DNA from: a virus
Virus record (IMG/VR): IMGVR_UViG_3300046535_000869
Span: 1 to 64,000 of that record
Length of the DNA: 64,000 nucleotides
Direction: 5' to 3' (one strand)
Shown here: positions 2,218-49,773 of the stretch, piece after piece
How positions within the stretch are numbered: the stretch's first letter is position 1
Layout: each line of letters starts with the position of its first letter
Notes under the pieces: generated by a model
Database searches by the model: none
The model's input: the letters and a program-made list of their open reading frames with translations, nothing else
What the model was told of the DNA's origin: nothing
Position numbers and translations under genes: made by a program

Positions 2218-5200
2218 TATCGGAGTCCTTTGCCGGGAGCGCCGTCCGAGAACGCGCCAGTCGTCCGGTCACTGAGGAAGAAATACTTCGCCTTGTTCGC
2301 TGCCGACTCTGTCGTCCACGGCCCGAGTACGTCCCGGTCGCCGAGGACGCCAGCCGTCGAGAAGAACCGGTCGACGTCGACACAGGTCAGCTTTACGATG
2401 GGAGCCGTCGTCATGTCGTTCAGGAGATCCTGAATCCCCAGCACCCACAGCGGCCGATTGATCCAGCCAGCCGCGCCGACGCCGTCGTAGTCGTCGACCT
2501 GCACGATGGAGCCGAGGTTGATCTTAATGTTCGGCAGCGTAGCCGTGAGCGTCACGTACCGAGGCGGGTACTTGCCGAACGTCAGGTCGCGCCCGACGAC
2601 GTCCTTTGCCGTGACCGGGTCGTCGGTGTAAGGCATCTGTCGGAGGTCTTGCCGGGCGACGTGGCCTCTGTTATCGAAGATGGCCTTCGCGTCCTTCTGC
2701 ATCTCGCTCGCGACGAGGAACTGTCGCTGGAGCGCCGGGCGGTAGCCGTAGCTGTAGACGATCTGGTTCTCCATTTCCTCCAGCGCCCGGTCGATGTCGG
2801 TGTCGGCGGTGAGGTCGTGGATGTCCGTCAGGTGGATGACGTTCGACAGATCCTCGAAGTCGTTCAGGTGACAGGCGAACACTTGGCCGTGTTGGTTCTG
2901 CCCAAAGCGCACGCCGAACGAGTTGAAGAACTTGCCGAGGACGTCCCGGACGGAGGTCGGCTGATCGAGGTAGATCTGGCCACGATAGTACCGGCCGATC
3001 CGGTTCGTCTCGATGTCTTCCATGAGCGACAGGCAGGCTGTGTTGACGACCGGCGTGCCGTCGTCGAACAGCCTCGGGTCCAGCCAGCCGCCGCTCGTCC
3101 ACGCCTCGTCGGCAGGCGGGAGGATGAAGTTCTGGAGCATGTGGAACAGTTGCCGAACCGCGCCGTCGATGGTGCTTCCGGTCGAGTCGCCGACGTCCTC
3201 GATGGCACAGCACCTGAGCAAGATCTTCTCTGGCAGCGGGTCGAGCTTTGTGAAGATGACGGTGTACCAGTGGCCGTTGTAGACCTGATAGTTCGTCGAG
3301 AAGTGGTCCTCCCAGTGCGGCTTCGTCGGTGCGAGCCAGATGTCGCCGTACTGCGCCTCTGGGACTTGGTCGTAGATGCCGTCGACGGGTTGCGGCTGCG
3401 CGGTCGGGACGGTCGTGTCAACCGCCCGCTTCGTGAAGATAGACTCGATGTGCCTGATAGCGTGGCCGAAGACCACCAACCGGTTGTAGCTCGCCCCGTT
3501 AATGAGCTGCTTGCCAGCCGGAATCGCCGGGACAACTCCATCCTCCGGCTTCGACGACGTACCTCCCGGGATCTGAACAATCGGGTTGTCCGAGTAGGAG
3601 TCCCAATAGACGACGCCATGCCCAAGGTCAAGGGTCGACGTAACGCCCGGCCCGACCTCAACCTGCCAGTCGTACAACGGCCCCCAGTCCGAGTAGAAGG
3701 ACCGATGCCTGATGACCCGGTAGCCGGTGAGCGTGAAGCCAGTCGGCGGACTGAAGGCGTCCCATGAAATCTCGGCGTTGTGGATGCGCCCGGCCGTCGC
3801 GCTGCACCAGACCGGCGCGATGTAGCCCTCACCAGACTGCGCTCGGCCGCTGAAGTACGTCGGCCCGGTCGGGTCGGCGTCGGCTTTCATCATCGCGTAG
3901 ACCAGATAGAACTGGTTGATCCGAAGCGCGATCCAGTAGGCGCTTCCGTCTGGATTCTCCTGATGGTCCGTGCCTTCGTAATCTGTAAAGGATGTCGTCC
4001 CTGTGCCGACGAACGAGTACTTCTCAATCGTCCCATCCGGCAGGCCGTTTGTCTTTAGTTGGGAGTGTTGCCGGAAGTCGTCCCTGAAGGAGGCGTAGAC
4101 GCGATAGCCCTTGATCGCCCCAGCGTACGCATCCCATGACACGTCGACCTGTCCGCCAAGCCCGACGACGACCGTCGTATAAGCAGGCTCTGACTCCAGT
4201 CCTTCGTCTGAGCCATCGTCGATGACGGCCGTGACCGCATAGTGAAGCGGAGACGGATACGACTCCGTAAAGCCAAAGTTGGGGTTGTTCGGGAAGTGGA
4301 TATTCCCGGCGTCCGAGTACACAGCCGAGAGGCCAGTCGGCGCGGCTGCGCGCGGGAGCATCGTGTACCGCACGTTCGCGACGACGCCCGACGGCGGCTC
4401 GGTGAGGTTGTGCGCGAGGTCCGGGAAGATCCCGTAGCCGATTGGGACGTACGTCTGGAGCTGCTCCGTCGGCGCGTCCGGGAAGTCCTCGCCGATGACG
4501 CGCGACGGGATCGTCTTCTCTAGGTTGAAGTCGCTAAACTCCGAGCCGAGCACGTCGTTGAACGTGAGCGACCGCCGGAGGCCGCTGGATTTATGCCCGC
4601 GCCAGATGCCACGGAACCGGGTCCATGGCGTTTCGTTCGCCTCGATGGACGCCTGACTCGACAGGCTGATGCGGCCTTCCCGGTTCTGCCAATTCTGCGT
4701 GGCCTGTGCGGCTTCGAGCGCCGACAGCAGCCGGTCAGAGTCGTCGATTTCGACCTGACACTGGGCCATCTGGTACGGGCTTTGCCGAGTGGACAAGGCA
4801 CGCGTTATGCTGCCGAAGCTGATGACCTTGCCCAGCTTCCGTCCGCCTTGGTACGTCGGCGGGTGGTTCAGTGTGTCGAGCGAGAAGGATCTATCCATGT
4901 CGTCGTACCCAATCGTCATCCACACGCGGAAGACTTGGTTCCGGCCGGTCAGTAACCGGCCGTCGGTAGGGTCCGGTTGGACATCGATCTCCCCGCCTCC
5001 TACGCATGTGCCTTCCGGTGGAGGAGGCGACGGCGAGGCCGACGCGCTGGGCGAGACACTGGCCGATGGACTGACTGAGGCCGACGGTACCGCCGGGTCC
5101 GACATCGCGAAGAACAAGCCGTCGGCGGGCCAGTTCCCGGCCGCGTTGCCGGAGCTGTGCGACAGCGTGCGGACGACCGCCATCGTCGCGTAGTCGATCT

Positions 5201-6029: not shown

Positions 6030-6707
6030 CTATTCGTCCAATCCTGCGAGGGTGAGCCATGCCGAGATGGCGTACGGCTGGGTGTCCAGCGGCGCGCCGT
6101 CCTCCGGGTCCGGCTGAATCTGAATCGCTCCGCCGTTCGTGCAGCTCGGAACGACCGGAGCCGGGTAGGCCAGCACCTCGATGCACAGTTGTGACAGCTC
6201 GACGAACGGGTCAGGGTCCGGCCGACTCAGGATCTCGATGGCAAGCTGTGACAGCTCGATGACCGGGTCGGCGTCCAGCAGCGCCAGCGCCTCAATCGGG
6301 AGCTGCGAGAGGTCGGCGAAGCTGGTCTCCGGGCTGACCGACGGACTGACCGAGGACGATGGCGACCGGCTGGCGCTCGGCGAGCGCGATGGTGAGGCCG
6401 AGGCAGACGGGCTGGCCGAATGCGACGGAGATGTCGAGAATGATTGCGAGGTCGACGACGACGGTGAGGTCGAGGCCGAGGCACTCAGCGACGAAGACGA
6501 CGACGGCGAGACGGAGGCTGACGGGCTGACCGAAGCCGAGGCTGATGCGCTCGGAGAGACAGAGGCCGACGGTGACTGCGAGGCACTCGGCGAATGCGAG
6601 GACGAGATCGGTTCGAGAATCGGGTCCGGCTTGCCGTCGACCCAGTTATCCCCGCTGTTCGGGCCGACGCCCGGTACCGGTTTGCCGTCGATGAAATTGT
6701 CGCCCAT
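6030..6707 (-). CDS. Ser/Pro-repeat tail-associated protein
   Basis: ATG at 6707 (TAATG overlap); ~90 aa of SPSAS repeats, then three (D/E)LSQLxIE repeats. Confidence 0.7.
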   Translation of the reverse strand: MGDNFIDGKPVPGVGPNSGDNWVDGKPDPILEPISSSHSPSASQSPSASVSPSASASASVSPSASVSPSSSSSLSASASTSPSSSTSQSFSTSPSHSASPSASASPSRSPSASRSPSSSVSPSVSPETSFADLSQLPIEALALLDADPVIELSQLAIEILSRPDPDPFVELSQLCIEVLAYPAPVVPSCTNGGAIQIQPDPEDGAPLDTQPYAISAWLTLAGLDE

Positions 6708-24278: not shown

Positions 24279-24279
24279 C

Positions 24280-33400: not shown

Positions 33401-33430
33401 GTCAGCAGCCGTGATGAGCGTGCGGTCCAT
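30401..33430 (-). CDS. HK97-type prohead protease fused to an AAA+ ATPase and scaffold-like tail
   Basis: DREGD, NPVVLWAHDH, ACSVGF, LLEHSICPVPAHPEA; GPPGTGKT, IIFVEDVD, TTNYPE, DRPGRF; C-terminal KAGRVLSSANE. Confidence 0.9.
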   Translation of the reverse strand: MDRTLITAADWKALVKKGASGDDLAPYVVFKSGLVDLSAMKADPESRTIPFVLSNANLDREGDSLAVKGWDLKDYKTNPVVLWAHDHGALPVGRALETINDGSMLRATDQFIGPDVYPFADTVYRMIQGGFLNACSVGFLPTEWEMSETGVNFLKQGLLEHSICPVPAHPEALVIARSKGIDVAPLKAWAEKTLDLMKRGESILTRKQVETLRAQADPTGRKVFSVLSELKVAKTSVPRETIPEAKATAEALPETHARVTDELDEQILLDGQPIAIEASAEPVIEPVVVEAKDSPLDVSAAAGVVPMSPVGPTPVPDDADDAEERAAFQTMASMLSDASDVLEQAASDVAGLLAVEQVEPTPNPAEDAEEANENRVMNGVLSVCQTIAEQVAVIASSAQSILDDSDAINAGPGAASIESAEDRVAKVFARVEDVDPVRWNKSLSKAFDVTREQIPAGDIEQALAARFIDCDVKALSESRFQVASARMGSFLKSLDEQLVDCDVEDIRNTDWDGKEVPPTWEMIRLNSKIEQDFLVDGMRFLTWEHEEFHGIKMCLRVTPAWYGLDVTTYIERDKKGAMERFVSDVQERAAGLKYLKGEAFNISGEFLERGSEGFDEVFLAPENAKAIKRVATLIEEKGADFDNRGLMVVGPPGTGKTLTGRLLLNNSKSTFIWVAARDFARMGAFGGMVHAFEMARELAPSIIFVEDVDNWLDGYTVDMLKSEMDGIRQTKGVVTILTTNYPELLPKALIDRPGRFHDVLKFDLPDDVARKQMLARWLPGLDAVDTIKAVDATAGYSGAHVRELCRFASIIQEQDGLALTAALDAALTKLADQRDLITSVQATGSRYRAASWVSKRFGPQGKSHTEASLMLKHRTLSLCAGDRRATTETKAAISVALADLDEAVQVLKAGRVLSSANEQRIRNATALLDEVLATLQTATEAPAEVIPPATDGPADPLPITMGRALDDNEQVLVLDEEKDIDLAISPDLIRSALKAAISEQLMLVTGRVD

Positions 33431-33496
33431 ATTTGGCAGATGCTCCTGGGTGTCCAGACGGAGACACGTTGAGTCTGCCAAGAGTTTTACGGACGC

Positions 33497-35766: not shown

Positions 35767-38700
35767 TTAGTCCAGGAGGGACAGGTCGCCGCCCGCCAGG
35801 AGGATCTTGTCCTCCAGCTCCCGCCGCTGCCGGTGAACCAGGAGGATGTCCAGCGTCCTGGCCCGGCCCGCCGCCAGGGAGCCGCCCTTCCCGACCGAGG
35901 CCCAGCTTCGCGACGCCTTCGCCTGCCCGCCCGCGACGATGCCGCCTTTCGTGGTCACGCTGGCGAACGCGCGCGCGCTGACCGCCTTCCCGGTGCTGGT
36001 CGCCCCGCCGCGCCCGATGATCGCGAAGGACCAGGACATCGACGTCGGAGCCGACCCAGCCGAGACGCCGCCGCCCGATCCGACGTAGCCGTAGGTTACC
36101 GGCTTGGGCTTCGGCGGGATGGCAAGGTTGCCGCCTTCCCACTCGACGAACGCGCCGCCGATCCAGCGCCCGCGCTCCGGCATGAGCGCGCCGCCGTCGG
36201 TCAGGACGCCCGCTGTCAGGACTTTGGGCTTGCGCCGCGCGTGCCGCCCGAAGGTCGGGTAGCCGTTCCCGGACCCGTACGCGCCGCCGGTCCCGACGTA
36301 GTCGAACTCCACCGAGGATGACGGGCTGGCGCTGACGGAGGACGACGGAGAGACCGAGGCCGACGGCGAGCGCGACGCCGAGGGGCTGACAGACGGCGAG
36401 GCCGAGGCGCTCGGCGACCTGGAAGCGCTGGGCGAGACCGATGGACTCTGTGAGGCGCTGGGCGACCGGGACGGCGACGCCGACGCGCTGGCGCTACTCG
36501 ACGGGCTGACCGACGGACTGACCGAGGCGGACGGCGACTTCGACGCGGACGGGCTGACCGAGGGACTGGCGCTCGCCGACGGCGACGTGCTGGCCGAGGG
36601 GCTAACGCTGGGACTCGCGCTCGCGGACGGTGACCGGGAGGCGCTCGGCGAGACTGACGGACTCTGGCTGGCCGAGGGAGAGACCGACGCCGAAGGACTG
36701 ACAGACGCGCTCGCGCTCGCGGACGGCGAGACGCTGGCCGACGGCGACACGGACGGCGACTGGCTCGCGGACGGCGATGTGCTCGCCGAGGGAGAGACGC
36801 TCGGACTGGCGCTGGCGCTCGGCGACCTGGAGGCGGACGGGCTGACGCTAGGCGACGCCGACGCCGACGGTGAAATGCTCGGTGAGCCAGCCGACGGCGA
36901 CAGGGAACTCGACGGCGACAGGGAGCTGCTCGGAGAGACCGAGGCCGAAGCACTCGATGACGGGCTGACGCTGGCCGACGGAGAGACGGAGGCTGACGGG
37001 CTGACCGACGGCGATTGGCTCGCGGACGGACTGACCGACGGCGACTGCGAGGCTGAGGGGCTGACCGACGCGCTGGGCGAGACAGAGGCCGACGGCGACA
37101 CGGACGCGCTCGGCGAGACGCTGGCGCTGGGCGAGACGCTGGCTGACGGCGAGACCGAGGGACTGGCCGATGCGGACGGCGAGACCGAGGGACTCTCAGA
37201 CGCCGACGGGCTGACACTGGCGCTCGGACTGACCGAGGCCGATGGACTCACGGAAGCCGACGCGCTCGCGCTGGGACTGACACTCGCAGACGGCGAGATG
37301 CTCGGCGACTGGCTGGCCGACGGGCTAACCGAGGCCGATGGAGAGACGCTTGGCGACTCTGACGCGGACGGAGAAACCGAAGCACTCGGCGAGACCGAGG
37401 GGCTGGCGCTCGCGCTCGGACTGACCGACGCAGACGGCGACACGCTCGGCGACGCCGATGCGGACGGCGACACGGAGGCCGACGGGCTGACACTCGCCGA
37501 CGGACTGATGCTGGGCGACGCGCTCGCACTCGGCGACACGCTGGCCGATGGCGAGACCGACGGTGATTGCGAGGCGCTCGGTGAGACGCTGGCCGAAGGA
37601 CTGACCGACGCGCTCGGACTGACCGACGGAGACGCCGAGGCGCTGGGCGAGACGCTCGCGCTGGGGCTGACCGATGGACTCTGCGATGCGCTCGGCGAAA
37701 CCGACGCCGACGGAGAGACAGACGCAGAAGGCGAGACACTCGCGCTGGCCGAGGCCGACGGCGAGACGCTCGCGCTCGGCGAGACCGACGGCGACTGTGA
37801 CGCCGACGGGCTAACGCTCGCCGAAGGACTGACGCTCGGACTCTGACTGGCCGAGGGTGAGACGCTCGCGCTGGGCGACACGCTCGCGCTCGGACTGACC
37901 GACGGACTCGCTGACGCGCTCGGACTGACGCTCGGCGATTGTGAAGCAGACGGAGAGACCGACGCCGAGGGGCTAATGCTGGCGCTCGGCGAAATCGACG
38001 GAGACTGACTCGCGCTCGGCGAGACGCTTGGACTCTGCGATGCTGACGGGCTAACCGATGCGCTTGGCGAGACGCTCGCTGATGGCGAGACCGATGGCGA
38101 CGCCGACGCCGACGGCGAGACAGACGCGCTGGGGCTAACACTGGGTGACTGTGACGCGGACGGCGAGACGCTCGCGCTCGGAGACTTCGAGGCGCTGGGC
38201 GACACGCTCGGCGATTGCGAGGCAGACGGAGAGACCGACGGCGACTGACTCGCCGAGGGACTAACCGACGCCGACGGCGACACAGAAGCAGACGGACTGA
38301 CCGACGCCGACGGCGAGACCGACGGACTCGATGAGGCTGACGGGCTAACGCTCGGCGACTGCGAGGCTGAGGGGCTGACCGACGCGCTGGGCGAGACGCT
38401 GGCGCTGGGGCTGACAGACGGCGACGCCGACGCCGAGGGACTGACGCTCGCCGACGGCGAGATGCTGGGCGACTGTGAGGCCGATGGCGACACGCTGGCG
38501 GACGGCGACTTCGACGCCGACGGCGAGACAGACGGACTCTGTGACGCTGATGGACTAACGCTGGCCGACGGGCTGACGCTCGGCGACTGACTCGCGCTGG
38601 GGCTGACACTCGCGCTGGGCGACACGCTCGGAGAGGCCGACGCCGACGGCGAGACCGACGCAGACGGGCTAACCGATGGAGAGGCGCTCGCGCTTGGCGA

Positions 38701-39996
38701 GACGCTCGCCGACGGACTGATGCTCGGAGAAGCGCTGGCGCTTGGCGACTTCGACGCTGAAGGCGAGACCGACGGCGACGCGCTCGCTGAGGGAGAGACC
38801 GACGCGGACGGGCTGACAGAGGCACTCGCTGACGCCGACGGAGAGACGCTCGGCGACTCGGCCTTGTTGAACGCCGTGACCTCGGTCGTGTTCAGGATCG
38901 CGACAGCCGCCTGCACGTCCACCGTCTCGATGGCGTGGCTGAGCGACGCCGACGGACTCACGCTCGCCGACGGTGACTTCGAGGCGCTCGGACTGACGCT
39001 CGCGCTGGGCGACTTCGACGGCGACGATGACGCCGACGGCGAGACGCTTGGACTCTGCGAGGCGGACGGTGAGACGGACGCGCTCGGCGAAACGCTGGCG
39101 CTTGGAGACTTCGAGGCCGACGGGCTGACGCTCGCACTCGGAGAGACACTCGGACTTTGTGAGGCCGATGGGCTGACAGATGGCGACTGGCTGGCGCTGG
39201 GGCTGACCGACGCGCTTGGACTGACGCTCGCCGAAGGGCTGACCGACGCTGAAGGCGAGACCGACGCCGACGGCGATAGCGACGATGACCCGGTACTGCT
39301 CTCGACCAGCGCGACGAAGATGTGGTTCGAGTCGCCAGTGATCGCCGTGACCGACGGGTTGCTCGTTTCCCCGGTCGACGTGTTGATCCTGAACTCCGAC
39401 CAGCAGCTCACCGCGTTCGCGTTGTTCCTCGACCGCGTCGTCGCGCCAGTCGTGAAGTTGGTCGAGACCGTCAGCGCGGTGCCGCTGCCGTTGGCTTCCT
39501 TGCCCAGCGCCGAGAAGTACAGGCGTGAGAGACTCGCCAAGCTGCTGAAGGCCGTCGAGCCGAAGCCCGCGTTCGCCGCGATGTTGTTGAACTGACTGGT
39601 CGCGCCATGCACCAGCGAGCTGCCCGCCGCGACCGTGAACTTCCAGCCGACCATGACCTTGTCGGAGCTGGACGGAGCAACCGTCGCCGTGAAGACCGTG
39701 CCGATGGCGTTCGTGCCAGACGAGACGAACCGCCAGAGCGACGTGCAGACGCCGTCCGAGGCCGCGCCGGTCGGGCTGTAGGTGTACTCCTCCAGCTTCG
39801 TCCATGTCCCGGTGCCGCCAGTGATGGACGTGTGGTCGTTCGTCGTGCCGGTCGTGGTCGAGTTGTTGTCGGTGGTGATGACGACGAGCGCGATGTCGCC
39901 TGACGCCGACAGGGCGTTCGTCGTCGTGGTCAGCGTGATCGCCGTCGCGCCGCTGACGCCGTTGACGCCGAGTGTGCCGACGGAGGTGATCGCCAT
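35767..39996 (-). CDS. Mucin/SRRP-like Ser-Pro repeat protein (putative glycosylated virion fibre)
   Basis: 1409 aa: ~230-aa beta-rich N-domain, ~1000 aa SPSAS(V/Q/A/K/R)/SPSV repeats, Gly-rich C-domain; no signal peptide. Confidence 0.85.
36311..39290 (-). repeat. Coding tandem repeat ([10 protein letters not shown] units)
   Basis: 12/18/30-nt periodicity with heavy synonymous variation. Confidence 0.95.
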
Positions 39997-41796: not shown

Positions 41797-43902
41797 TTAC
41801 TGCTTGACGAACGCCTGACAGTTGACGCCGGTCGTGTCTGGGCAGAGTCGGAACAGGTTCTGCGGAACGCCGTCAATCGCCTCCTGCTGAAACAGGCCCG
41901 GCAGCGTCGTGAAGGTGATGACCGGCGGAGGCGGAGGCGGAGGCGCGGTCCCGCCGTTCAGTGGAGACGTCCCGGTCCCATCCCAGAGCACGTCATCGTA
42001 GAGCTTCATCACGAACCGGCGAGGATGCGACCCGTACGGCAGAAACGTCACGCGAGCGAAAGCGGTGTTCGGAGGGAGCGTGATGGTCGGCGTCTCGACG
42101 TAGATATCGAAGAACACGCCGACGGCCCCTTGGACGATAGAATCGGAGACGAGATAGTCGCTATTCGGCACGCCCCAGAGCGCCGTCGTGCAGCCGGACA
42201 GGTACGCGCCTGTGATCTTAATCGGATGCACGTAGCCAGTCGTGATGTCGACACAGCGGCTTCCGTAGTACCGGTCGATGTAGCCCAGCGGCGCGCCATT
42301 ACCGAGGCTGCTCTGCTGGATCACTACAGGGTTACGGAACCAGCCTTCGTTGACGTCTTCCGCCTGACGTGCGCCGATGCCGATGAAGTCGTTGATGCTC
42401 CGCACGTTGTCGAGGACCGGGAGGTGGGCCTCGTCGAAGAAGCGGCCCGGATCTTCAATGCCCCACGTCTCGAAGCCGACGAATCCGTTGCCGACGCTGA
42501 GCGCATGGTCGACCAGTATCGGCGGGTTGTTGTTGGTGTAGGGAGGCGCGAACAGCACGTCCGGCATCGCCCCAGCGACCGACGGATACAGCCCGGACTT
42601 TCCATGAAAGCCGAACAGGTTCCAGCCGACCGTGTTGTTCCAGCATTCGTTCCCGTCGAAGGTGTTCTGGATGCCGTGAAACCAGCCGCACGCGCCCTCG
42701 ACGCCGGGTTTATTGTTCAGGAAGTTGACGCCCGCCTGAATCTCCGACACGTCGGAGAAGTTCGTGAGGTTGGCGAAGCCGATGTTTCTCAGGAAGCTGT
42801 TCCTGACTTCGTAGCCGTCCTCTGTGATGAAGCCCGCGCCTTGGAAGCCGGTCGCGATGTTCTCGACGACGAGCGTGTCCGAGGTGCCGTGCGTGACGTG
42901 GCCCCACTTCCCGCGCCCCTGCCCGATGAGGACCATGTCGACCGTCCGACGCTCGACCGCGCAGCCACCGCCGTGAACATGGTGCGCGTGAAAGGCGTAC
43001 TTCCCGATCTGGTTCGTCCCGATGTGCGATTGGTCCGCCGATGTCGAGTTGAGGTCGTCGACCGTTGTTCGACCGAGGCCGACGAGCGCGCCGCCTTGGA
43101 TGTCCCAGCAGGCCGTATCGCCGATATTGGCGACGTGACCGGCGGTCCCGTTCGCGTTCTCTGACCGGATGACGACGTTGCGCGTGACGTTGAGGATCTT
43201 CGGCCGGATGGCGAGCCGCCCATCGTGCGCGAAGACCGCCGCGTGCGCGAACGACAAACCGCGCGACAGGCCGATGCTCGTCCCGTTGACCGACGTGATG
43301 AACGTGGCAGGCTCGACGATGGGCGAGTCCGGGAAGACCGCCGGGTTCGTGCTGAGCAGCTTGACCTCGTCGCCGACGCGCCATCCGCTCGGCACGCCGC
43401 AGAGGGTGATGAACGAGCTGCCGGGCTGCGCGTCGAAGCACAAGTCCGCGCCCGGCGTCCGGTACGGTTCGTTGATCTTGATGGTGCCGAAGCTGGCGAT
43501 GCCGTTGCCCCACTGGAACGGATCTTGCCCAAGGTCAATCGGCACGTTGCGAATCTGGAGGTCGACGCGCACGCCAGCCGGAATCGGGTCGGCTGGTGTG
43601 CCGAGGTCGAGCGTCCCGCCCGGCAGGATGAGCAGCGTCGTGACCTTCGCTGAGGTATTCGCCGACCGGCTGACCTTCAGCGTCCCGCCGACCTCGATGT
43701 AGTCGAAGACACTGCCGTCCGGGAGCGTGACCGTCTGTCCGGCCGCGACGATGAGCTGCGCCGGGAGGTCGGTGCGCCGCTTGACGAACTCCGACGCGCC
43801 GATGGTGACGCGGTCCGGCTGGACTGTCGCCATGATCATCTGGGCTGAGGCCGTCGAGGCGATGAACAGCGACGCAAGCAGGAAGCGGAATGTCTTACGC
43901 AT
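41797..43902 (-). CDS. Signal-peptide-bearing G8-domain/beta-helix protein (TMEM2/CEMIP/fibrocystin-like architecture)
   Basis: MRKTFRFLLASLFIASTASA; GGTLDLGTPADPI, GWRVGDEV, NVTRNVVIRS, GKYAFHAH, HGTS, FITEDGYE. Confidence 0.8.
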   Translation of the reverse strand: MRKTFRFLLASLFIASTASAQMIMATVQPDRVTIGASEFVKRRTDLPAQLIVAAGQTVTLPDGSVFDYIEVGGTLKVSRSANTSAKVTTLLILPGGTLDLGTPADPIPAGVRVDLQIRNVPIDLGQDPFQWGNGIASFGTIKINEPYRTPGADLCFDAQPGSSFITLCGVPSGWRVGDEVKLLSTNPAVFPDSPIVEPATFITSVNGTSIGLSRGLSFAHAAVFAHDGRLAIRPKILNVTRNVVIRSENANGTAGHVANIGDTACWDIQGGALVGLGRTTVDDLNSTSADQSHIGTNQIGKYAFHAHHVHGGGCAVERRTVDMVLIGQGRGKWGHVTHGTSDTLVVENIATGFQGAGFITEDGYEVRNSFLRNIGFANLTNFSDVSEIQAGVNFLNNKPGVEGACGWFHGIQNTFDGNECWNNTVGWNLFGFHGKSGLYPSVAGAMPDVLFAPPYTNNNPPILVDHALSVGNGFVGFETWGIEDPGRFFDEAHLPVLDNVRSINDFIGIGARQAEDVNEGWFRNPVVIQQSSLGNGAPLGYIDRYYGSRCVDITTGYVHPIKITGAYLSGCTTALWGVPNSDYLVSDSIVQGAVGVFFDIYVETPTITLPPNTAFARVTFLPYGSHPRRFVMKLYDDVLWDGTGTSPLNGGTAPPPPPPPVITFTTLPGLFQQEAIDGVPQNLFRLCPDTTGVNCQAFVKQ

Positions 43903-44611
43903 AAGTGTTCTCCTTGAGGAACTCGTCAAACCGTCCGGCGGTCTGGCCCCAGCCCGGCACGCTGTCGGACTCGGTCCAGCCGTCGGTGTACTTCTGGTTG
44001 CGAAACTCGTCCTTCGACCAGCGCGAAGGCGTCAGGTTCTTGTCGTGTCGGATGTCGATGTTCGGGAGCGCCGACATGCACGCGATGACGTCCAGGTCGT
44101 CGATGCCGCCGTGTCGGATCTTCCGCGTGCCAGGCTCGTAGCCCATACGCTGGGTGAAGCCCTCGCGCTCGACGCGCAGGCAGCGCTGGCGGTAGTGCTC
44201 AGCCAGGAGCAGCCGGTTCGCAAAGAGGCCGCTGGTCTGGTTGCAGAAGTAGAACAGGGCCTTCCCGGAGGCCGCGTCGACCTTCCAGACGTTCTGGTTG
44301 TAGTAGTAGGCGTCGTGACGCCGGACGGACAGGTCGAAGTGGCTGTCGTGATACAGCACGTCGTGCTCGACGAGGAACGCCACGTCGGTGGATATCATCA
44401 GCAGCCCGGCCATGATCTGCTGGAACATCGTGAGCTGGCCAGGCCGCGCGTTCAGGACGACGTTCTTCCAGCCGGTCGGCAGATCGGTCCGCTCCAGCGT
44501 GACCGCGACGATGGGCCGATGGCCGCGCGCCTCGTCGAGCCGACGACGAACCGCCTCCAGGATGGCCGGGTTGCCGCGACCGTGCGAGTAGTACACCAGG
44601 CCGGACGTCAC
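43895..44611 (-). CDS. GT-A-like glycosyltransferase
   Basis: TMFQQIMAGL...VAFLVEHDVLYH (DxD-like), NIDIRH. Confidence 0.65.
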   Translation of the reverse strand: MTSGLVYYSHGRGNPAILEAVRRRLDEARGHRPIVAVTLERTDLPTGWKNVVLNARPGQLTMFQQIMAGLLMISTDVAFLVEHDVLYHDSHFDLSVRRHDAYYYNQNVWKVDAASGKALFYFCNQTSGLFANRLLLAEHYRQRCLRVEREGFTQRMGYEPGTRKIRHGGIDDLDVIACMSALPNIDIRHDKNLTPSRWSKDEFRNQKYTDGWTESDSVPGWGQTAGRFDEFLKENTYA

Positions 44612-45597
44612 GCGACACGCTCCTCGGCTGGGTAGATGAACTCACGGCCCGCCGTGAGCACGGTGTCGAGCGCCGCCTGGCCGACCGGCTCGTGCCAGCC
44701 AGGGATGGGTGCGAACTTCGCAATCAGCCAGGCCAGCGGGAGCCGCTGACCGGCCCAGGCGTTCGTCATCCACAGATGGCGCGAGTAGGCCCGCGCCACG
44801 TCCGGCTGGTTGCCTAGCGGGTATGGGAAGCTGAAGCCGTGCTGGGTCCTGAACAGGTGCGAGTACCAGGTCGACCGGTTGACGACGTGCCGCCCGCCAG
44901 ACAGCCAGCTCTTGCAGGCGATCTCGACGCCGTACTGGCCCCAGCTCCCATGCCGGTTGTCCAGACCGCCGAGCGCGTTGAACCGCGCGCGCTCCATGAA
45001 GAAACACGCCCCTATCGAGGACATCACATCCTGGATCTGGTTGTTATCGCAGCGGGTCTTGTACGCGCCCCAGTACTGGAAGTGGAGGTCGTGGTCGAAC
45101 CGCCAGAAGTCCGTCCGCCGGTTGCCCCGCTTCTGCCAGACCATCACCTTGTCGAAGCCGAGCGTCGACAGGCAGCTCGCGCACTTGTCCAGCGCCGGAC
45201 CCTGGTAGGTCCTGGCCTGGCACGACCGGCACTGCCAGTCGAAGACGTGCAGGTTGAACATCCGAGGAATCTGGGTGACATCCGGGCCGAGCGCCTCCGC
45301 CGCCTCGATGAGCTTCACGTCGAAGCCCTCATCGACGCCGCAATGTGCGTCCAGCTTCATCACATACTTGGCCCGCGACAGCCGAGCGCCCAGGTTGGTC
45401 GCCTCCCGCTGGCCGACCGCCGCGCCAGGCTGCACCACGGTCACGCGAGGATGCGTGTCCAGGGCCTCGACCGGCCAGCCGCCATCGCAGACCGCGATGA
45501 CCTCCGTGGCCGCGCGCGCGTGCGCGAGGATGTCCTCGACCGTGTTCTTGAGGAACGGCTCGTTCCGCGCCGGGATGATGACGCTCAGGTCTAGCAC
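44608..45597 (-). CDS. Polypeptide GalNAc-transferase-like (GT2/GT27-like) glycosyltransferase
   Basis: LSVIIPARNE, MKLDAHC (DxH), GACFFM.R.RF..LGGLD..HGSWGQYGVEIACKSWLSGG...SHLFR; GTG start. Confidence 0.85.
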   Translation of the reverse strand: MLDLSVIIPARNEPFLKNTVEDILAHARAATEVIAVCDGGWPVEALDTHPRVTVVQPGAAVGQREATNLGARLSRAKYVMKLDAHCGVDEGFDVKLIEAAEALGPDVTQIPRMFNLHVFDWQCRSCQARTYQGPALDKCASCLSTLGFDKVMVWQKRGNRRTDFWRFDHDLHFQYWGAYKTRCDNNQIQDVMSSIGACFFMERARFNALGGLDNRHGSWGQYGVEIACKSWLSGGRHVVNRSTWYSHLFRTQHGFSFPYPLGNQPDVARAYSRHLWMTNAWAGQRLPLAWLIAKFAPIPGWHEPVGQAALDTVLTAGREFIYPAEERVA

Positions 45598-45863
45598 GGC
45601 CCGGCCCCCCGCCAGCTCGCCGAGCACTTCCAGCCGGTGCTGTGCATCCTGAACGCCTCGACGACCAGCGGGCCGATCTTCATCCAGACGAACGTGCGGT
45701 CCCGGTAGTACTCGAACCAGCCCCAGTCTTCCGGCCGAATGTAGATCGGGCCGACCCGAACGTCGACGCATAGCCCGCAGGAGTAGCCCTCGCCGTGGCC
45801 TTGTGGGCAGGTTGATGCCTTCGATGGCATCGTATCGCCGGTTTTTGATGCGTCTCGTAGCAT
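45591..45863 (-). CDS. Hypothetical protein
   Basis: TGATG-coupled ORF, Trp/Cys-rich. Confidence 0.45.
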   Translation of the reverse strand: MLRDASKTGDTMPSKASTCPQGHGEGYSCGLCVDVRVGPIYIRPEDWGWFEYYRDRTFVWMKIGPLVVEAFRMHSTGWKCSASWRGAGPC

Positions 45864-46588
45864 CAGCGTCCCACGTCCAGCGGTCCCGGAGCGTTGACCC
45901 AGAGGAAGGACCGATGCTCGTCCCGCTCGACGCCGACCGCCCCGTCCTTCGCTCCGAGGATGAACCACGGTTTGATGTCGTACGCCCGCGTGAAGGCGTC
46001 GACGACGAGCTGCACATGCAGCCCCGCGCCAGGCTTGCTGCCGTAGTAGTCGTGGCCCGCGATGATGCCGCCGAACCGGACCTTCCGCGACCACTCGACG
46101 ATGTCGTTCGTGACGTTCTGGAAGTTGTGATGCCCGTCGATGTAGACGAAGTCCAGCGACCGGTCCGGCACGCCGCGCACCGCCTCCATGCTCCGGGAGA
46201 CCGCCAGCGCCGCGTACTTGTAGGGAGCCAGCCGCTTGGAGGCCAGCCGGTGATAGTTGTCGAAGACCGTCTGGTTCCGCTTCTGGTCCCGGTAGTCGTC
46301 CCGGAGGTTGTACGGATCGACGCCTGTGTAGTGGAGCTGTGGGTTTGCCGCCAGGAGCACCTCGGCGAACTCGCCCTCCATGACGCCGATCTCGACGCCC
46401 CGGTTGAAGTTGTATCGCCAGAAGAACCTCGCCAGCTCCTTCCGGGTCGATGGGATGACGACCGGGTGCCTGGCGTCCGGCGGACCGTCGCCGTCTCGGC
46501 CCAGCGCCGGGAGGCGGAAGAACTCGGCGAGCTGGTCGAGCGTCTCCGCCTGGGCCGTCGCAGGTCTATTGTCCACTGCTGAGGTCAT
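45863..46588 (-). CDS. Class I SAM methyltransferase (Methyltransf_24-like)
   Basis: GVEIGVMEG, LDFVYIDGHH, GGIIAGHDY. Confidence 0.9.
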   Translation of the reverse strand: MTSAVDNRPATAQAETLDQLAEFFRLPALGRDGDGPPDARHPVVIPSTRKELARFFWRYNFNRGVEIGVMEGEFAEVLLAANPQLHYTGVDPYNLRDDYRDQKRNQTVFDNYHRLASKRLAPYKYAALAVSRSMEAVRGVPDRSLDFVYIDGHHNFQNVTNDIVEWSRKVRFGGIIAGHDYYGSKPGAGLHVQLVVDAFTRAYDIKPWFILGAKDGAVGVERDEHRSFLWVNAPGPLDVGR

Positions 46589-47442
46589 AGCACCCTTTCC
46601 CAGAAGCCTCGGCAGATGCGAGGCCAGTTGAACCGCGCCGCCCCTTCGTCAATCTCTGCCTGGCTGACCGGAACCGGCTTCCGGCTCAGGGTGTCCTGGA
46701 GCCAGTCGGTCACCTCTGGCCGGGACAGCTCCGGGACGAAGATGGCCAGCCCGTCGTACCAGGTGCGGTAGTGTGGCCGGTTGAACACAATCGGCCTGGC
46801 CCCGCAGAGCAGGCCCTCCGCCGCCGGTAGCTCGAAGCCCTCGACCCGACGCAGCCCCGACACGTACTCGGCCGAGCTGTACAGCCCAGCTACTACCTCG
46901 TCGGAGACATCAGTATGGCAGACTACGCCGCTCCGGCGAAGGTTCGGACCGAGATGTGCTACGGTTTTCCCATTTGCCCAGGCTGCGCGCGCGCACTCCT
47001 TGACACTTTCTGTCAGCCAGGACTGGCCGGTCGTGACGATGCCGAAGGTCCGGTCCGTGCCTCGTGGGTAGAAGACCGCCGGGTCGACGCCCAGGGCCGA
47101 GTGATAGAACGGGAACTCGACCTGGAGCGCGTCTTCGAGGAGCAGCTCCTTGAGGTTGTAGTAGGACCAGACCAGCTTCGCCCCGGCCCAGAGGCGCAGC
47201 CAGGCGTCCGTCCTCGGCTTCTGGGTCGACCTCACGGCATACTGGATGACGGCGTACTTGCCGGTCTTCTTGATGAGGCCCGCCTGCTCGGTGAACTGCT
47301 CGACCCGCCCGTTGACGTGGAGGATGGTCAGCCGGGCCTGCTCAGGCCCGACCCAGGTGACGCAGCTCGGCGCGGAGCGCTTGAGCGCCTCGCTGACCCG
47401 TTTCATCGCCCGGTCGTCTGGTGTGACCATGTGGACCCGCAC
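46585..47442 (-). CDS. GT-B glycosyltransferase (paralog of 20350..21246)
   Basis: EGFELPAAEGLLCGARPI. Confidence 0.8.
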   Translation of the reverse strand: MRVHMVTPDDRAMKRVSEALKRSAPSCVTWVGPEQARLTILHVNGRVEQFTEQAGLIKKTGKYAVIQYAVRSTQKPRTDAWLRLWAGAKLVWSYYNLKELLLEDALQVEFPFYHSALGVDPAVFYPRGTDRTFGIVTTGQSWLTESVKECARAAWANGKTVAHLGPNLRRSGVVCHTDVSDEVVAGLYSSAEYVSGLRRVEGFELPAAEGLLCGARPIVFNRPHYRTWYDGLAIFVPELSRPEVTDWLQDTLSRKPVPVSQAEIDEGAARFNWPRICRGFWERVL

Positions 47443-48017
47443 TACCCGATCTCCGCGATAATGGCCGGGTTCCAGACCACGTTGCGCCGAGGCCAGGTCC
47501 AGGAATTCATAAAGTCGAAGTCGCCCTCGAACCGATGGCCGAACGTGCTCAGCCGATCCGGGATGTTCGGGACCAGCATCATCGGCGTCCCGACGTTGCC
47601 GTTCCGTAGGTCCTGGTCGGCCCAGAGGACCCGCCCATCCGCCCGGTAGCGCATGCGGAACAGGACCGGGAACAGCCGCCGCCGCCCGATGAGGCCCGCG
47701 ATGGCGTCCGCCTGGTGCGACCGATGGCCCTTGACGTAGGTGTCGTCGTCGTCCATGAACGCCAGCCAGCCGCCCCTCGCCTGCGGGAGCGCCGCGTTGC
47801 GCTCGGTGTGGCCCCAGTCGCCCGCCGGAGGCTTCCCGCGCGCGAGGAGGATCTCATCGCCAGGCCAGAGGTCGATGGACGCCAGGGTCGCCGCCAGGCT
47901 CTCCCGGCCGGTCGTCGCGACGATGAAGCTGATGCTGGTCGACCGGAGCGCCCGGTCGTCGGCCGTGATGCGCTCGACCACCACCTCGACGTCCTTGCCC
48001 TTCCGTGGCCCCTTCAT
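47442..48017 (-). CDS. Short GT2-like (GT-A) glycosyltransferase
   Basis: ISFIVATTGR, RNAAL..ARGGWLAFMDDDD, EGDFDF. Confidence 0.8.
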   Translation of the reverse strand: MKGPRKGKDVEVVVERITADDRALRSTSISFIVATTGRESLAATLASIDLWPGDEILLARGKPPAGDWGHTERNAALPQARGGWLAFMDDDDTYVKGHRSHQADAIAGLIGRRRLFPVLFRMRYRADGRVLWADQDLRNGNVGTPMMLVPNIPDRLSTFGHRFEGDFDFMNSWTWPRRNVVWNPAIIAEIG

Positions 48018-48127
48018 CGCGGCCCTCGGTAGACGACAAGGAGCAGGATGGCCGTCGTGACCGCCACGGCAATCGCGCCAGCCGCCAGCACGTACTTGAG
48101 GACGACCAGCCCTGTTGCCAGCGTCAC
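48014..48127 (-). CDS. 37-aa single-TM membrane peptide
   Basis: GTGA/ATGA coupling on both sides; MTLATGLVVLKYVLAAGAIAVAVTTAILLLVVYRGPR. Confidence 0.6.
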   Translation of the reverse strand: MTLATGLVVLKYVLAAGAIAVAVTTAILLLVVYRGPR

Positions 48128-49341
48128 AGGTAGCCCAACCTCAATGACTTGCGCTCCAGCGTGACCGCGACGCCCGGCTTGCCGTCGTGGTACGTGACCC
48201 AGAGCCGCTTCCGCTGGCCCGGATAGACAGGCCCGACGCCCAGGGCCTCGTTCGTGACCGTCAGGTCCAACCGAGCGCCATCTTTGACCGCCGCCCGGAC
48301 CACGTCCGCGACGTCGACCGTCTCCGCCTCCGACACGCCGTACCGCGCCGACAGGATGGTGAGGCCAGTAGGTTCTGGTGCTGCGCCGCCGGTAGGTTTT
48401 GCCGCCGACATCGCCGCCGCCGGAGTGTCGCCCAGGTAGCCGCGCGCGGCCCGGAACGCCTCGTCGAGGTCGGTCGGCCAGGATGGCACGCTTCCTGATT
48501 GCGCCGAGAACTTCTCAATCAGCCAGCGAAGGTCGTGAACCCGCCCGGCCCACTGGTCGAGCATCCAGTGCCGAACACACCACGCCGAGCCGAGCTTCAG
48601 CTCCCGCTTGTCGATGAAGTAGCCGCGCCCATGTTGCGGCCCCTTATGGAGATGCGCGTACCAGGTGCGCTTCGTGACCGCGACGTGTCCGCCGCCGAGC
48701 CACGTCTTGAGGCCCAGCTCCTGGAACTCCTGGATGAACGTCCCGTAGGTCGCCGGGTTGTCGTCCAGCCCGCCCAGCCAGTCGAAATGCCGCCGGTCCA
48801 TCACCCAGCACGAACCCTGGCTCGACATCTCGTCGTCGACCTCGTACGCCGGGTTGCCCAGCCGCGCCTTGATGCGCTCGTTCCAGATGGTGCCGTGCAG
48901 CCCGCACTTCGGGTCGTTCGGCCGCGCAAACGGGTAGCTCAGGTAGTGGTAGTCGACGTCCAGCTTGCCGACATCCTGGATGGCCCAGGCGTCCGCATCG
49001 AGCCGCTTGCGCCGAGGAACCAGGATGCTGTGGTCGTCCGGGAGGTCCCGCTGAACCTGCTCGTCGAAGCCAGGCGCGACCATACAATGGGCGTCCAGCT
49101 TCATCAGCACGTCCGCCGAGGCCATCGCCACGCCGTCGTTAATCCCGGCCCGCATGCCGCCCGCTGTGCCTTTATGGAGGACCTTGACGCGCGGGTCGGC
49201 CGGGAGGGGCGTCTCCGGCCAGTAGCCGTCGAGGACGGCGATGACCTCGATGTCACCAGTAGCCTTCTCCAGCAGATCCTGGACGGTACGGCCGAGGAAC
49301 TTCTCGCCGCGTGACGGGAGGATAATACTCAGCTTCGCCAT
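48124..49341 (-). CDS. Polypeptide GalNAc-transferase-like enzyme with C-terminal SUEL/DUF3395-like lectin domain
   Basis: LSIILPSRGE, MKLDAHC, GSCWVM, LGGLDD, ELGLKTWLGGG, WYAHLHK; C-terminal ILSARYG...DV...VTNEALG..VYPGQRKRLWVTY. Confidence 0.85.
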   Translation of the reverse strand: MAKLSIILPSRGEKFLGRTVQDLLEKATGDIEVIAVLDGYWPETPLPADPRVKVLHKGTAGGMRAGINDGVAMASADVLMKLDAHCMVAPGFDEQVQRDLPDDHSILVPRRKRLDADAWAIQDVGKLDVDYHYLSYPFARPNDPKCGLHGTIWNERIKARLGNPAYEVDDEMSSQGSCWVMDRRHFDWLGGLDDNPATYGTFIQEFQELGLKTWLGGGHVAVTKRTWYAHLHKGPQHGRGYFIDKRELKLGSAWCVRHWMLDQWAGRVHDLRWLIEKFSAQSGSVPSWPTDLDEAFRAARGYLGDTPAAAMSAAKPTGGAAPEPTGLTILSARYGVSEAETVDVADVVRAAVKDGARLDLTVTNEALGVGPVYPGQRKRLWVTYHDGKPGVAVTLERKSLRLGYL

Positions 49342-49368: not shown

Positions 49369-49773
49369 TTAGGGTTTGTTCTCGAAGCTGAAGGTCGGTG
49401 TGACCTTGACCTCGTCGTCTGTGTGCGCGATGTTGTACGGCCCATCGTCGAACCGCTCGACCCAGACCAGGTCGCCCGCCGCCGACGTGACGTAGTAGCC
49501 GTAGGCCGGTCCAGCCGCCCCGGTGAACAGGAAGCTCTGCCGCGCGTAGGTCGCCAGGCTCGGCTCGCCGACCGCGACGCCCCACGCGCCAGCCGGGAGC
49601 GTCTTCGCCGCGTAGCCGCCGCCCGCCATCTCGACCAGGTTATCCAGCCGCGTCGCGACCGACGGTGTGTAGTCGTTGGCGTACAGGTGCAGCGTGAACG
49701 GCGAGAGGCTCGACGTGTTCAAGATGGCGTTGAGGATGTCGGCCGATGCCGCCGACGGAATAACCAGCGTCAT
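49369..49773 (-). CDS. Putative virion structural protein
   Basis: LHLYAND.TP...E..GGGYAAKTL...YGYYV...VERF pattern seen in phage structural genes; coupled to portal. Confidence 0.6.
   Translation of the reverse strand: MTLVIPSAASADILNAILNTSSLSPFTLHLYANDYTPSVATRLDNLVEMAGGGYAAKTLPAGAWGVAVGEPSLATYARQSFLFTGAAGPAYGYYVTSAAGDLVWVERFDDGPYNIAHTDDEVKVTPTFSFENKP

Follow-up and report, generated by a model that had tools for sequence, protein, structure and literature searches.

In animals and protists, lectin-assisted glycosylation of polypeptides counts as a hallmark of mucin biosynthesis. In Gram-positive bacteria, the long Ser-X proteins of the serine-rich-repeat adhesin systems are O-glycosylated in the cytoplasm by GtfA/GtfB and accessory glycosyltransferases (GTs). 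Among phages, mycobacteriophage glycosyltransferases modify the phages' own structural proteins (Freeman et al. 2023, as referenced in PMC12619734). Rhamnose-binding lectin domains, which have a fold to be considered below, need eight conserved Cys forming four disulfides (PMC2430599). Literature on DUF3395, the former name of PF11875, appears, to judge by titles and abstracts, to deal with J-proteins, DNAJC11 or a trypanosome Msp1 complex; we found in it neither an established biochemical function for this domain nor a description of PF11875 on a glycosyltransferase. Here we describe a phage glycosyltransferase, P0001, for which an architecture like that of the polypeptide GalNAc-transferases (GALNTs) is supported.

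The gene lies in a 64,000-nucleotide window (the whole stretch analysed) of the 102-kb genome of an uncultured phage, a contig on which no terminal repeat was found. The coordinates of the features discussed here are collected in Table 1. The reading frame translates without a stop, its codon-position GC (0.68/0.46/0.87) is typical of coding sequence in this genome, and homologues align with the protein from residue 1 onward. The first catalytic beta-strand begins at residue 4. The protein possesses neither a signal peptide nor a transmembrane segment, and the phage-gene setting places it in the cytoplasm. A preliminary description of this DNA had reported a GT-A domain with a DAHC motif, an Ala/Pro linker and a tail of about 80 aa; we located all three parts in P0001 (residues 1-305, 306-326 and 327-405), with D83-A-H85-C86 as the motif. 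The linker is predicted to be disordered (pLDDT below 50 at residues 305-323 of the full-length model), and its length and sequence differ between homologues (alignment A1). A tblastn search of 50,697 GenBank phage records with P0001 gave no match at E<=1e-5, and PHROGs holds no family for P0001, its type B paralogue, the 238-aa protein encoded nearby or the tail domain. As to the host, relatives point to Planctomycetota.

Table 1. Features of the P0001 locus, with positions counted from the first letter of the window
Feature	Coordinates	Strand	Basis
P0001, type A glycosyltransferase gene, 405 aa, soluble	48124..49341	(-)	translation; Pfam GT2; homologues of like architecture
Catalytic GT-A domain, residues 1-305, ppGalNAc-T-like	48427..49341	(-)	Foldseek, VIA-align, phmmer
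DxH motif D83-A-H85, predicted Mn2+ and nucleotide-sugar ligands	49087..49095	(-)	aligns with DSH of human GalNAc-T2
H230, predicted third metal ligand, in Gal/GalNAc-T-like motif WLGGG...YAHLH	48652..48654	(-)	aligns with GHVF His of GalNAc-T2
Flexible Ala/Pro linker, residues 306-326, TPAAAMSAAKPTGGAAPEPTG	48364..48426	(-)	pLDDT <50; variable among homologues
C-terminal tail domain, residues 327-405, Cys-free, likely PF11875 superfamily, SUEL/rhamnose-binding-lectin-like fold	48127..48363	(-)	Pfam, model, VIA-align
Glycosyltransferase-like gene, weak GT2 match	47442..48017	(-)	Pfam
Glycosyltransferase-like gene, weak glycosyltransferase PHROG match	46585..47442	(-)	PHROGs
Methyltransf_24 SAM methyltransferase, core cassette member	45863..46588	(-)	Pfam; 28/33 loci
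Type B paralogue, GT27-like domain (~44611-45597), Cys-rich insert, no lectin-fold tail	44608..46017	(-)	33% identity to P0001
238-aa protein, motif FLVEHDVLY, directly downstream of type B GT	43895..44611	(-)	homologues in 26/33 loci
SPSAS repeat protein, 1409 aa, ~966 aa of SPSAS[VQAK]-type Ser-X repeats, presumed main acceptor	35767..39996	(-)	translation
Ser-X tract, 92 aa, next reading frame upstream of 1270-aa protein	6330..6605	(-)	six-frame scan
Ser-X tract, 20 aa, inside 1270-aa tail-region protein	5025..5084	(-)	six-frame scan

Pfam Glycos_transf_2 spans residues 5-114 of P0001 (E 1.5e-11). When the catalytic domain was compared with the PDB by Foldseek, the top 50 matches were GalNAc-transferases without exception (best E 3.8e-16). 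VIA-align ranked GalNAc-T1 (Z 22.3 over 270 aa) and TgGalNAc-T3 (Z 22.0 over 279 aa) above the next family, K4CP (Z 18.4 over 213 aa), and the best match of P0001 by phmmer against PDB sequences was GalNAc-T2. The ppGalNAc-T-like character proposed for this domain was thus recovered by sequence, Foldseek and VIA-align alike, and the results support GT27 ppGalNAc-transferases as its closest relatives among solved structures. D83, H85 and H230 are invariant in alignment A1. The Mn2+ ligands of human T2 are D224/H226/H359.

The P0001 gene belongs to a structural module of siphovirus type, where it follows closely downstream of the portal-MuF gene, and its cassette comprises a type A GT, a methyltransferase, a type B GT and the 238-aa protein. 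The type B enzyme, picked out earlier as a lectin-less paralogue at 44608, is real; it aligns with P0001 at E 5e-43, its best PDB sequence match is GalNAc-T2 (E 1.7e-7), and its true start is probably downstream of 46017. Type B orthologues are found in most related loci, and the type A and type B pair is kept with or without the tail. Fusion of the methyltransferase behind the GT and the lectin-fold domain was seen in eight IMG/VR loci and in P0084, these triple-fusion ORFs being 653-720 aa long. The 238-aa protein has no Pfam or PHROG match, and the tail domain was absent from all 69 of its homologues that were inspected. Of the two further glycosyltransferase-like genes, only the one at 46585-47442 has homologues among the related loci (2 of 33).

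The SPSAS repeats named in the preliminary description are present in a 1409-aa protein, as Ser-X runs of 192, 656 and 118 aa. Its gene has the portal gene to one side and the protease/capsid genes to the other. A regular-expression search over the six reading frames of the 102-kb genome located further Ser-X tracts, of 20 and 92 aa, in the tail region (Table 1). Neither the globular ends of the SPSAS protein, N- and C-terminal, nor six proteins encoded nearby in the structural region gave a Pfam match; as its end domains match no family, a virion role for the protein rests on gene position. Tracts of (Ser-X)n>=10 occur on the GT strand in 26 of 33 related IMG/VR loci and never on the opposite strand, and the repeat type SPSxSxSPS recurs over loci with GC from 38 to 69%. 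A tight link between the enzyme family and Ser-X repeat proteins is supported, and we consider it fairly probable that P0001 glycosylates such proteins.

The tail domain begins with LTILSARYG and ends with ERKSLRLGYL, and its standing as a domain is well beyond what chance would give. Against 1.84 billion representatives, phmmer gave 174 matches at E<=1e-3 (best 5e-22); the domain is conserved in eight full-length homologues, and its model has a pLDDT of 96.1. PF11875 was the sole Pfam family that it matched, at E 6e-4 and 20 bits, below the gathering cut-off of 27.1 bits. The homologue P0036 carries a precomputed PF11875 match, the phmmer relatives of the tail pass PF11875 with up to 256 bits (E down to 6e-77), and the nearest ESM Atlas clusters carry PF11875. 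By transitivity through the relatives that pass, the tail likely belongs to the PF11875 superfamily. When the tail was aligned by VIA-align with 48,161 PDB chains, ranks 1-8 were all rhamnose-binding-lectin folds, with modest Z (4.1-5.4) and coverage of 60-63 of 81 residues. It was only this exhaustive search that found the lectin fold; a Foldseek comparison of the tail model with the PDB yielded nothing at E<0.001 (best E 0.62). PF02140 (SUEL lectin) did not match the tail even at E<=10. The relatives of the tail match SUEL_Lectin weakly, and P0130 alone among the tandem-array relatives exceeded the PF02140 whole-protein cut-off (41.3 vs 31.4 bits), though none of its stretches passed individually. 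When PDB sequences were searched with an HMM profile of alignment A2, no SUEL lectin and only a weak GT match came up, and no Pfam match to ricin-B/CBM13 was found in P0001. The claimed resemblance of the tail to SUEL and DUF3395 domains finds support in the PF11875 kinship, the confident model and the top VIA-align matches; the modest Z and the blank Foldseek result stand against it.

The tail is present in 11 of 120 close homologues of P0001 and in 8 of 33 phage loci; some 90% of type A enzymes do without it. At least 5 to 8 gains or losses were counted on the catalytic-domain tree. In every fusion seen, the tail lies directly behind the type A catalytic domain (GT-dom, GT-dom-MT, MT-GT-dom and GT-dom-GT2). 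The median Ser-X tract was 665 aa in the presence of the tail and 150 aa in its absence (one-sided p 0.007, for loci that are not independent). Other tail copies were found neither in the 102-kb genome nor elsewhere in the 33 loci, and a pattern search of IMG/VR with alignment A3 gave 15 matches, none of them confirmed, and no stand-alone or otherwise-fused copies. In the preliminary description, the lectin-less paralogue would prime and P0001 would fill in. Because the type A and B pair is maintained independently of the tail, and most type A enzymes have none, the tail would be an optional enhancer and not the basis of any split between priming and filling.

Beyond these phages, bacterial relatives of the tail are mostly tandem arrays. 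A rough pattern match finds signal-peptide-like N-termini in 82 of 143, and in this they resemble multivalent lectins or adhesins. The partners of bacterial PF11875-like domains include WD40, HEAT, calpain and aspartyl protease, and are not carbohydrate-centred. Stand-alone 84-aa proteins of the tail-domain type also exist. In BFVD, the same fold (TM 0.6-0.77) is found on giant-virus proteins named GDP-fucose-domain protein, FkbM and other methyltransferases.

We propose that P0001 would act as a cytoplasmic Mn2+-dependent transferase of a ppGalNAc-T-like (GT27-like) family widespread in phages, in partnership with the conserved type B paralogue, the methyltransferase and further transferases. 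Serines in the SPSAS repeats would be O-glycosylated before assembly, with the phage's own virion-module proteins, namely the fibre-like 1409-aa protein and the two tail-region tracts, as targets. The tail domain on its 21-aa linker would be an optional targeting module, holding the enzyme to a long repetitive acceptor. Most likely it would bind sugars already attached, so that follow-up glycosylation would be lectin-assisted, in the manner of animal GALNTs; or else it may bind the repeat peptide itself. GT27-like Ser-X O-glycosylation with the tail as a targeting module is our best explanation, and taken as a whole we regard its chances as even. Our analysis showed the folds, the motifs of metal ligands, the order of domains, a conserved cassette and its linkage to Ser-X proteins; that the acceptor is a protein, which sugar is transferred and whether the tail binds anything are matters that we infer.

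The tail retains part of a sugar site. Its Tyr334 (in A-x-Y-G) and its Gly375 and Lys378 (in P-G-x-x-K-x-L) correspond to Tyr63, Gly117 and Lys120, which are sugar ligands in latrophilin. As to the rest of the canonical rhamnose site, the Glu42 equivalent is lost with an absent N-terminal strand, GTY is changed to GQR, and loop 1 is shortened. In latrophilin, E42D already abolishes sugar binding (PMC2430599). Residues 325-405 contain no Cys. The invariant E396 may be an alternative acidic partner. Carbohydrate binding by the tail is a tentative assignment, which we doubt somewhat more than we trust. That the tail is instead a protein- or peptide-binding adaptor, with catalysis as proposed above, we rate as rather unlikely; its hold would then be on the unglycosylated Ser/Pro repeat, on some globular region of the acceptor or on another cassette enzyme such as the methyltransferase. 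Solved domains of the rhamnose-binding-lectin fold do include protein binders (P113, PfRIPR and latrophilin-teneurin), which is consistent with an adaptor, as are the loss of the key Glu and the GTY motif, the placement of the tail between GT and methyltransferase in the triple fusions of the eight loci and P0084, and the WD40, HEAT and protease partners in bacteria, which are typical protein-interaction contexts. However, the tail stays behind the GT even when the methyltransferase is N-terminal (P0056) or a second GT takes its place (P0207), an order of fusion indicating that its bond is with the GT rather than with the methyltransferase. The retained Tyr, Gly and Lys argue against an adaptor too, as does the same domain on giant-virus glycan-tailoring enzymes, for which we know of no Ser-X context.

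A passive structural module, which serves solubility, spacing or oligomerisation without a ligand and persists by drift in some lineages, would fit the absence of the tail from about 90% of close homologues, its patchy distribution and its disordered linker. By contrast, the polar residues Y, D, N, K and E are invariant across distant tail copies (R-K is added in the GT-linked subgroup; Y334, N364, K378 and E396 are invariant in the tail), the tail has been gained or kept repeatedly on one enzyme type, and Ser-X tracts are longer where it is present; a passive role thus seems very improbable to us. We give equally little credence to an action of P0001 on glycans of the host envelope, on lipid-linked sugars or on DNA, as in serotype conversion or anti-defence, with the tail bound to a host cell-wall sugar. 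Classically, phage glycosyltransferases carry out DNA glucosylation and O-antigen modification (PMC12619734), and Pfam assigns P0001 only to the generic GT2 family. However, the nearest solved relatives are polypeptide transferases, P0001 is soluble with no membrane segment, and the cassette sits within the virion module and in 26 of 33 loci has Ser-X repeat ORFs next to it.

A broader implication of sugar binding by the tail is possible, though doubtful: Cys-free modules of the PF11875/SUEL-like type may be unrecognised intracellular carbohydrate-binding modules, which viruses attach to glycan-tailoring enzymes and which here would give a phage mucin-type transferase a lectin-guided, glycopeptide-primed action like the one that animal GALNTs owe to their ricin-B domains. 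The carriers would then be phage GT27-like transferases and methyltransferases, together with fucosyltransferase-like and FkbM enzymes of giant viruses. If true, this would mean the following: 1) lectin-assisted dense O-glycosylation was invented independently, on a phage 'mucin' of about 1000 residues, so that the lectin-assisted solution arose more than once and with a different lectin-type fold; 2) the widespread PF11875/DUF3395 gains a first testable biochemical function; 3) the control of O-glycan density by accessory domains gains a model that is small, soluble, cytoplasmic and compact in its genetics; and 4) particles of uncultured phages bear mucin-like, heavily glycosylated fibres, which would matter for adsorption, for sticking to mucus or biofilm and for escape from host or immune recognition.

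Among known domains, SUEL lectins (PF02140; CSL3 2ZX0, SUL-I 5H4S, latrophilin 2JXA/8DJG) are the best matches of the tail, at Z 5.2-5.4 and an rmsd of 2.4 A over 62 residues. Both possess the motifs A-x-Y-G and P-G-x-x-K-x-L-x-V-x-Y, including the Tyr, Gly and Lys through which latrophilin contacts rhamnose. SUEL lectins have 8 Cys in 4 disulfides, whereas the tail has none, adds two or three C-terminal strands with an invariant Glu, and is set in an intracellular protein. PF11875 (DnaJ-like_C11_C), to which the tail is likely related, is found at the C-terminus of DNAJC11 and of many tandem-repeat proteins in bacteria. Mycobacteriophage glycosylation modifies short C-terminal tails of capsid and tail-tube subunits, unlike the Ser-X repeats here, and we found neither a lectin-type domain nor a kilodalton-scale Ser-X acceptor described there. 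In the serine-rich-repeat system, as in the phage cassette, a cluster of soluble transferases is encoded beside a very long Ser-X substrate, and an accessory substrate-binding component helps the initiating enzyme. The enzyme families are distinct, however (GT4 GtfA with its GtfB partner versus a GT27-like GT-A enzyme), and SecA2/Y2 export has no phage counterpart, the phage cassette lying in a virion module.

The parallel with GALNTs (GT27; PDB 2FFU, 1XHB, 8V9Q, 8UHV) drawn in the preliminary description is upheld, in that P0001 also combines a GT-A fold carrying DxH, a distal His and a Gal/GalNAc-T-like motif with a flexible linker and a small lectin-type domain, and its presumed acceptor is likewise a long, Ser-rich and Pro-containing repeat. 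Because the lectin-type folds are non-homologous, the likeness is analogous and not inherited. Identity is only 15-17%. GALNTs transfer GalNAc from UDP-GalNAc, with retention, to Ser/Thr of polypeptides; for P0001, what bears on the acceptor is genomic linkage to Ser-X repeat ORFs. A GALNT is a type II membrane protein of the secretory lumen, whereas P0001 is soluble and cytoplasmic, with no membrane anchor. The accessory domain of GALNTs is a 130-aa ricin-B beta-trefoil (CBM13), and that of P0001 is an 80-aa fold of SUEL/PF11875 type which, unlike its GALNT counterpart, is optional within the family.

P0001, the 405-aa protein that joins a type A glycosyltransferase (GT) domain through an Ala/Pro linker to a C-terminal tail domain, is encoded by a reading frame with codon-position GC of coding type. 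All motifs quoted in the preliminary description were found in its translation: DAHC corresponds to D83-A-H85-C86, the linker to residues 306-326, and ARYG, VDV, VTNEALG and YPGQRKRLWVTY all lie within the tail (residues 327-405). Pfam recognises only a generic Glycos_transf_2 domain (residues 5-114, E 1.5e-11). Among all PDB sequences, human GalNAc-T2 was the top phmmer match (E 2.5e-3, P0001 residues 13-232), with DAH aligned over DSH and WLGGG...YAH over the Gal/GalNAc-T motif, reaching the metal-binding His. When an AlphaFold2 model built with 12 homologues (mean pLDDT 71.7, residues 116-174 poorly predicted) was compared with the PDB by Foldseek, the top 50 matches were GalNAc-transferases only (best E 3.8e-16). 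Exhaustive alignment with VIA-align ranked GalNAc-T1 (Z 22.3, 270 aligned residues) and Toxoplasma GalNAc-T3 (Z 22.0, 279 aligned) about 4 Z units over the next GT-A enzymes, K4CP at 18.4 followed by heparosan synthase, SpsA and others, and with wider residue coverage. Since sequence, Foldseek and VIA-align all put GalNAc-transferases first and D83, H85 and H230 are invariant across the family alignment, "ppGalNAc-T-like" is justified as a structural statement.

The type B paralogue is 33% identical to P0001 (E 5e-43), has an insert rich in Cys, lacks the tail, and matches GalNAc-T2 better than P0001 does in the C-terminal motif (E 1.7e-7). Its insert holds four Cys (CRSC...CASC, residues about 260-290 of the long reading frame), sits where type A has a poorly predicted loop, and may be a zinc ribbon. 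As annotated, the long frame runs some 150 bp into the methyltransferase gene, and a later true start is therefore probable.

The contig is single, 102,082 bp long, and the window is its first 64 kb, in which the minus strand holds nearly all genes. PHROG and Pfam matches identify a siphovirus-type structural module harbouring two embedded sugar-enzyme islands, one with the P0001 gene. The second has genes for a SIS isomerase, a fused cytidylyltransferase-cupin protein, a class III aminotransferase, three or four methyltransferases (RMNT_CmcI-like and FkbM types among them), two glycosyltransferases of GT-B type and an MptE-like protein, as well as a weak match to radical-SAM proteins. As a whole it resembles a biosynthetic route to an activated sugar that is aminated and methylated. 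The prohead protease region (residues about 58-233, prohead-protease/major-head type) belongs to a 1026-aa frame immediately upstream of the gene for the major head protein; residues about 646-885 of this frame match PHROGs with ATPase or clamp-loader annotations, an unusual protease-ATPase fusion. A 710-aa protein that matches G8 and CEMIP-type beta-helix domains separates the glycosylation cassette from the Ser-repeat protein; such domains come from eukaryotic hyaluronan-binding or depolymerising proteins, and no homologue of it occurs in the 33 related loci.

Coordinates of features in the window
Feature	Positions	Strand	Remark
Ser-X patch, 20 aa	5025-5084	-	in 1270-aa tail-region protein
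Ser-X tract, 92 aa	6330-6605	-	adjacent reading frame, tail region
Tape-measure protein	11237-15817		PHROG/Pfam
Head-tail adaptor	18189-19148		PHROG/Pfam
Sugar island 2	19145-28357	-	between capsid and head-tail adaptor genes
Major head protein	29050-30270		PHROG/Pfam
Prohead protease	30401-33481	-	inside 1026-aa ORF; PHROG/Pfam
Ser-repeat protein, 1409 aa	35767-39996	-	
G8/CEMIP-type protein, 710 aa	41797-43929	-	
Sugar island 1	43895-49341		holds P0001 gene; just downstream of portal
238-aa protein	43895-44611	-	motif FLVEHDVLY
Type B GT, long ORF	44608-46017	-	
P0001	48124-49341	-	
Portal fused to MuF domain	49770-52166		PHROG/Pfam

In the 33 IMG/VR loci collected with the family alignment, a core recurs that consists of the type A GT, Methyltransf_24 (28/33), type B (in most of the loci having available flanking sequence) and, directly downstream of type B, the 238-aa protein (26/33). 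The last, which matches no Pfam or PHROG family, is probably a further cassette enzyme; extra, more distant copies occur in some loci. Runs of at least 10 Ser-X dipeptides were found on the GT strand in 26 of the 33 loci and in none on the opposite strand. They are SPSxSxSPS-type repeats, in frames of up to 1555 aa and genomes of 38 to 69% GC. Here repeats of SPSAS type fill about 966 aa of the 1409-aa protein; with the two tail-region tracts, at least three phage proteins carry the putative acceptor motif.

The tail domain is carried by 11 of the 120 best homologues, the remainder being about 290-300 aa long and ending where the P0001 linker begins. On the catalytic-domain tree its presence changes 8 times by parsimony, at least five changes being forced by well-supported branches; the tail is an accessory that was repeatedly gained or lost. 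It follows the catalytic domain alone in P0001 and seven other genes, precedes a methyltransferase in the homologue P0084 and in eight IMG/VR loci, where the ORFs are 653-720 aa long, ends a methyltransferase-GT-tail fusion in P0056 and is followed by a second GT2 in P0207. In every multidomain form it comes directly after the type A domain, indicating that it is coupled to that glycosyltransferase and not to the methyltransferase. All eight tail-bearing loci have Ser-X tracts, and these are longer (median 665 vs 150 aa, one-sided Mann-Whitney p 0.007); as at least four of the eight (L008, L013, L019 and L030) are one lineage, judged by a common fibre N-terminus, and the loci vary in flank length, the difference counts as a hint and falls short of a result.

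The isolated tail matched one Pfam family, PF11875 (DnaJ-like_C11_C, formerly DUF3395; E 6e-4), below threshold at 20 bits vs 27.1. Run in full against 1.84 billion representatives, phmmer gave 174 relatives (best E 5e-22), which pass PF11875 strongly and are mostly tandem arrays of 2-10 copies. Several also align weakly to the SUEL_Lectin model over its final 26 positions, through a shared G-DP-x-G-x-x-K-x-L-x-V-x-Y motif. Modelled alone from 24 sequences, the tail gave a confident fold (pLDDT 96.1), and a Foldseek search against the PDB returned no match. VIA-align against 48,161 chains placed the rhamnose-binding lectin CSL3 first (Z 5.4), followed by SUL-I (5.3), three latrophilin lectin domains (5.2), P. 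falciparum P113 (4.7), the SUEL-type C-terminal domain of rice beta-galactosidase (4.6) and PfRIPR (4.1), with rmsd of about 2.4-2.9 A over 60-63 residues for the eight best. These Z values are individually modest and none is convincing alone. Because the P113 and PfRIPR papers assign both domains the rhamnose-binding-lectin fold, the eight belong to one fold family; this consistency and the shared motifs make it likely that residues 1-64 of the model form a SUEL-like core, followed by two or three additional C-terminal strands. This supports the SUEL/DUF3395 resemblance described earlier. By title and abstract, the papers found to mention DUF3395 concern J-proteins, DNAJC11 or a trypanosome Msp1 complex. 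A cluster of 66-aa Nucleocytoviricota proteins lies near the tail in the ESM Atlas.

The evidence on sugar binding by the tail is mixed. In favour of binding are the unusually many polar residues that are invariant (Y, D, N, K and E), the multivalent arrays of most relatives, signal-peptide-like N-termini in 82 of 143 relatives (a rough pattern match), and same-fold BFVD matches (TM 0.6-0.77) on giant-virus proteins (Fadolivirus, Klosneuvirus, Terrestrivirus, Indivirus) named GDP-fucose-domain protein or FkbM/other methyltransferases; an uncultured phage protein also has the fold. Against it, the domains that accompany the tail domain in bacteria (WD40, HEAT, calpain, aspartyl protease and DUF3011) do not centre on carbohydrates, and latrophilin, P113 and PfRIPR make protein contacts through this fold. 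Latrophilin holds rhamnose via Glu42, Tyr63, Gly117 and Lys120, and E42D or K120R alone abolishes binding (PMC2430599). The P0001 tail retains the Tyr (Y334), Gly (G375) and invariant Lys (K378), but lacks the Glu-bearing N-terminal strand and, unlike rhamnose-binding lectins, has no cysteines; GQR replaces the GTY loop motif, whose loss in P113 was taken by its authors to argue that P113 is not a lectin.

The most economical reading is that a cytoplasmic mucin-type O-glycosylation system would act on the phage Ser-X proteins, and that the tail would tether the type A enzyme to this very long repetitive substrate, via sugars already added or via the repeat peptide. The proposed division of labour, with type B priming and tail-bearing type A filling, is drawn from analogy, beyond which it has no support; A and B occur as a conserved pair with or without the tail, and the A/B distinction is therefore independent of it. 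By title and abstract, nothing relevant came up for GT27 or ppGalNAc-T combined with phage, and enzymes from phages are outside the coverage of PMC3417536. In mycobacteriophages, glycosylation of virions is known by citation. Compared with GT27 ppGalNAc-transferases, P0001 has no ricin-B domain or membrane anchor and is only 15-17% identical, and its activity is putative; it therefore falls outside GT27 in the strict sense. What is added here is the likely lectin-fold tail and its distribution.
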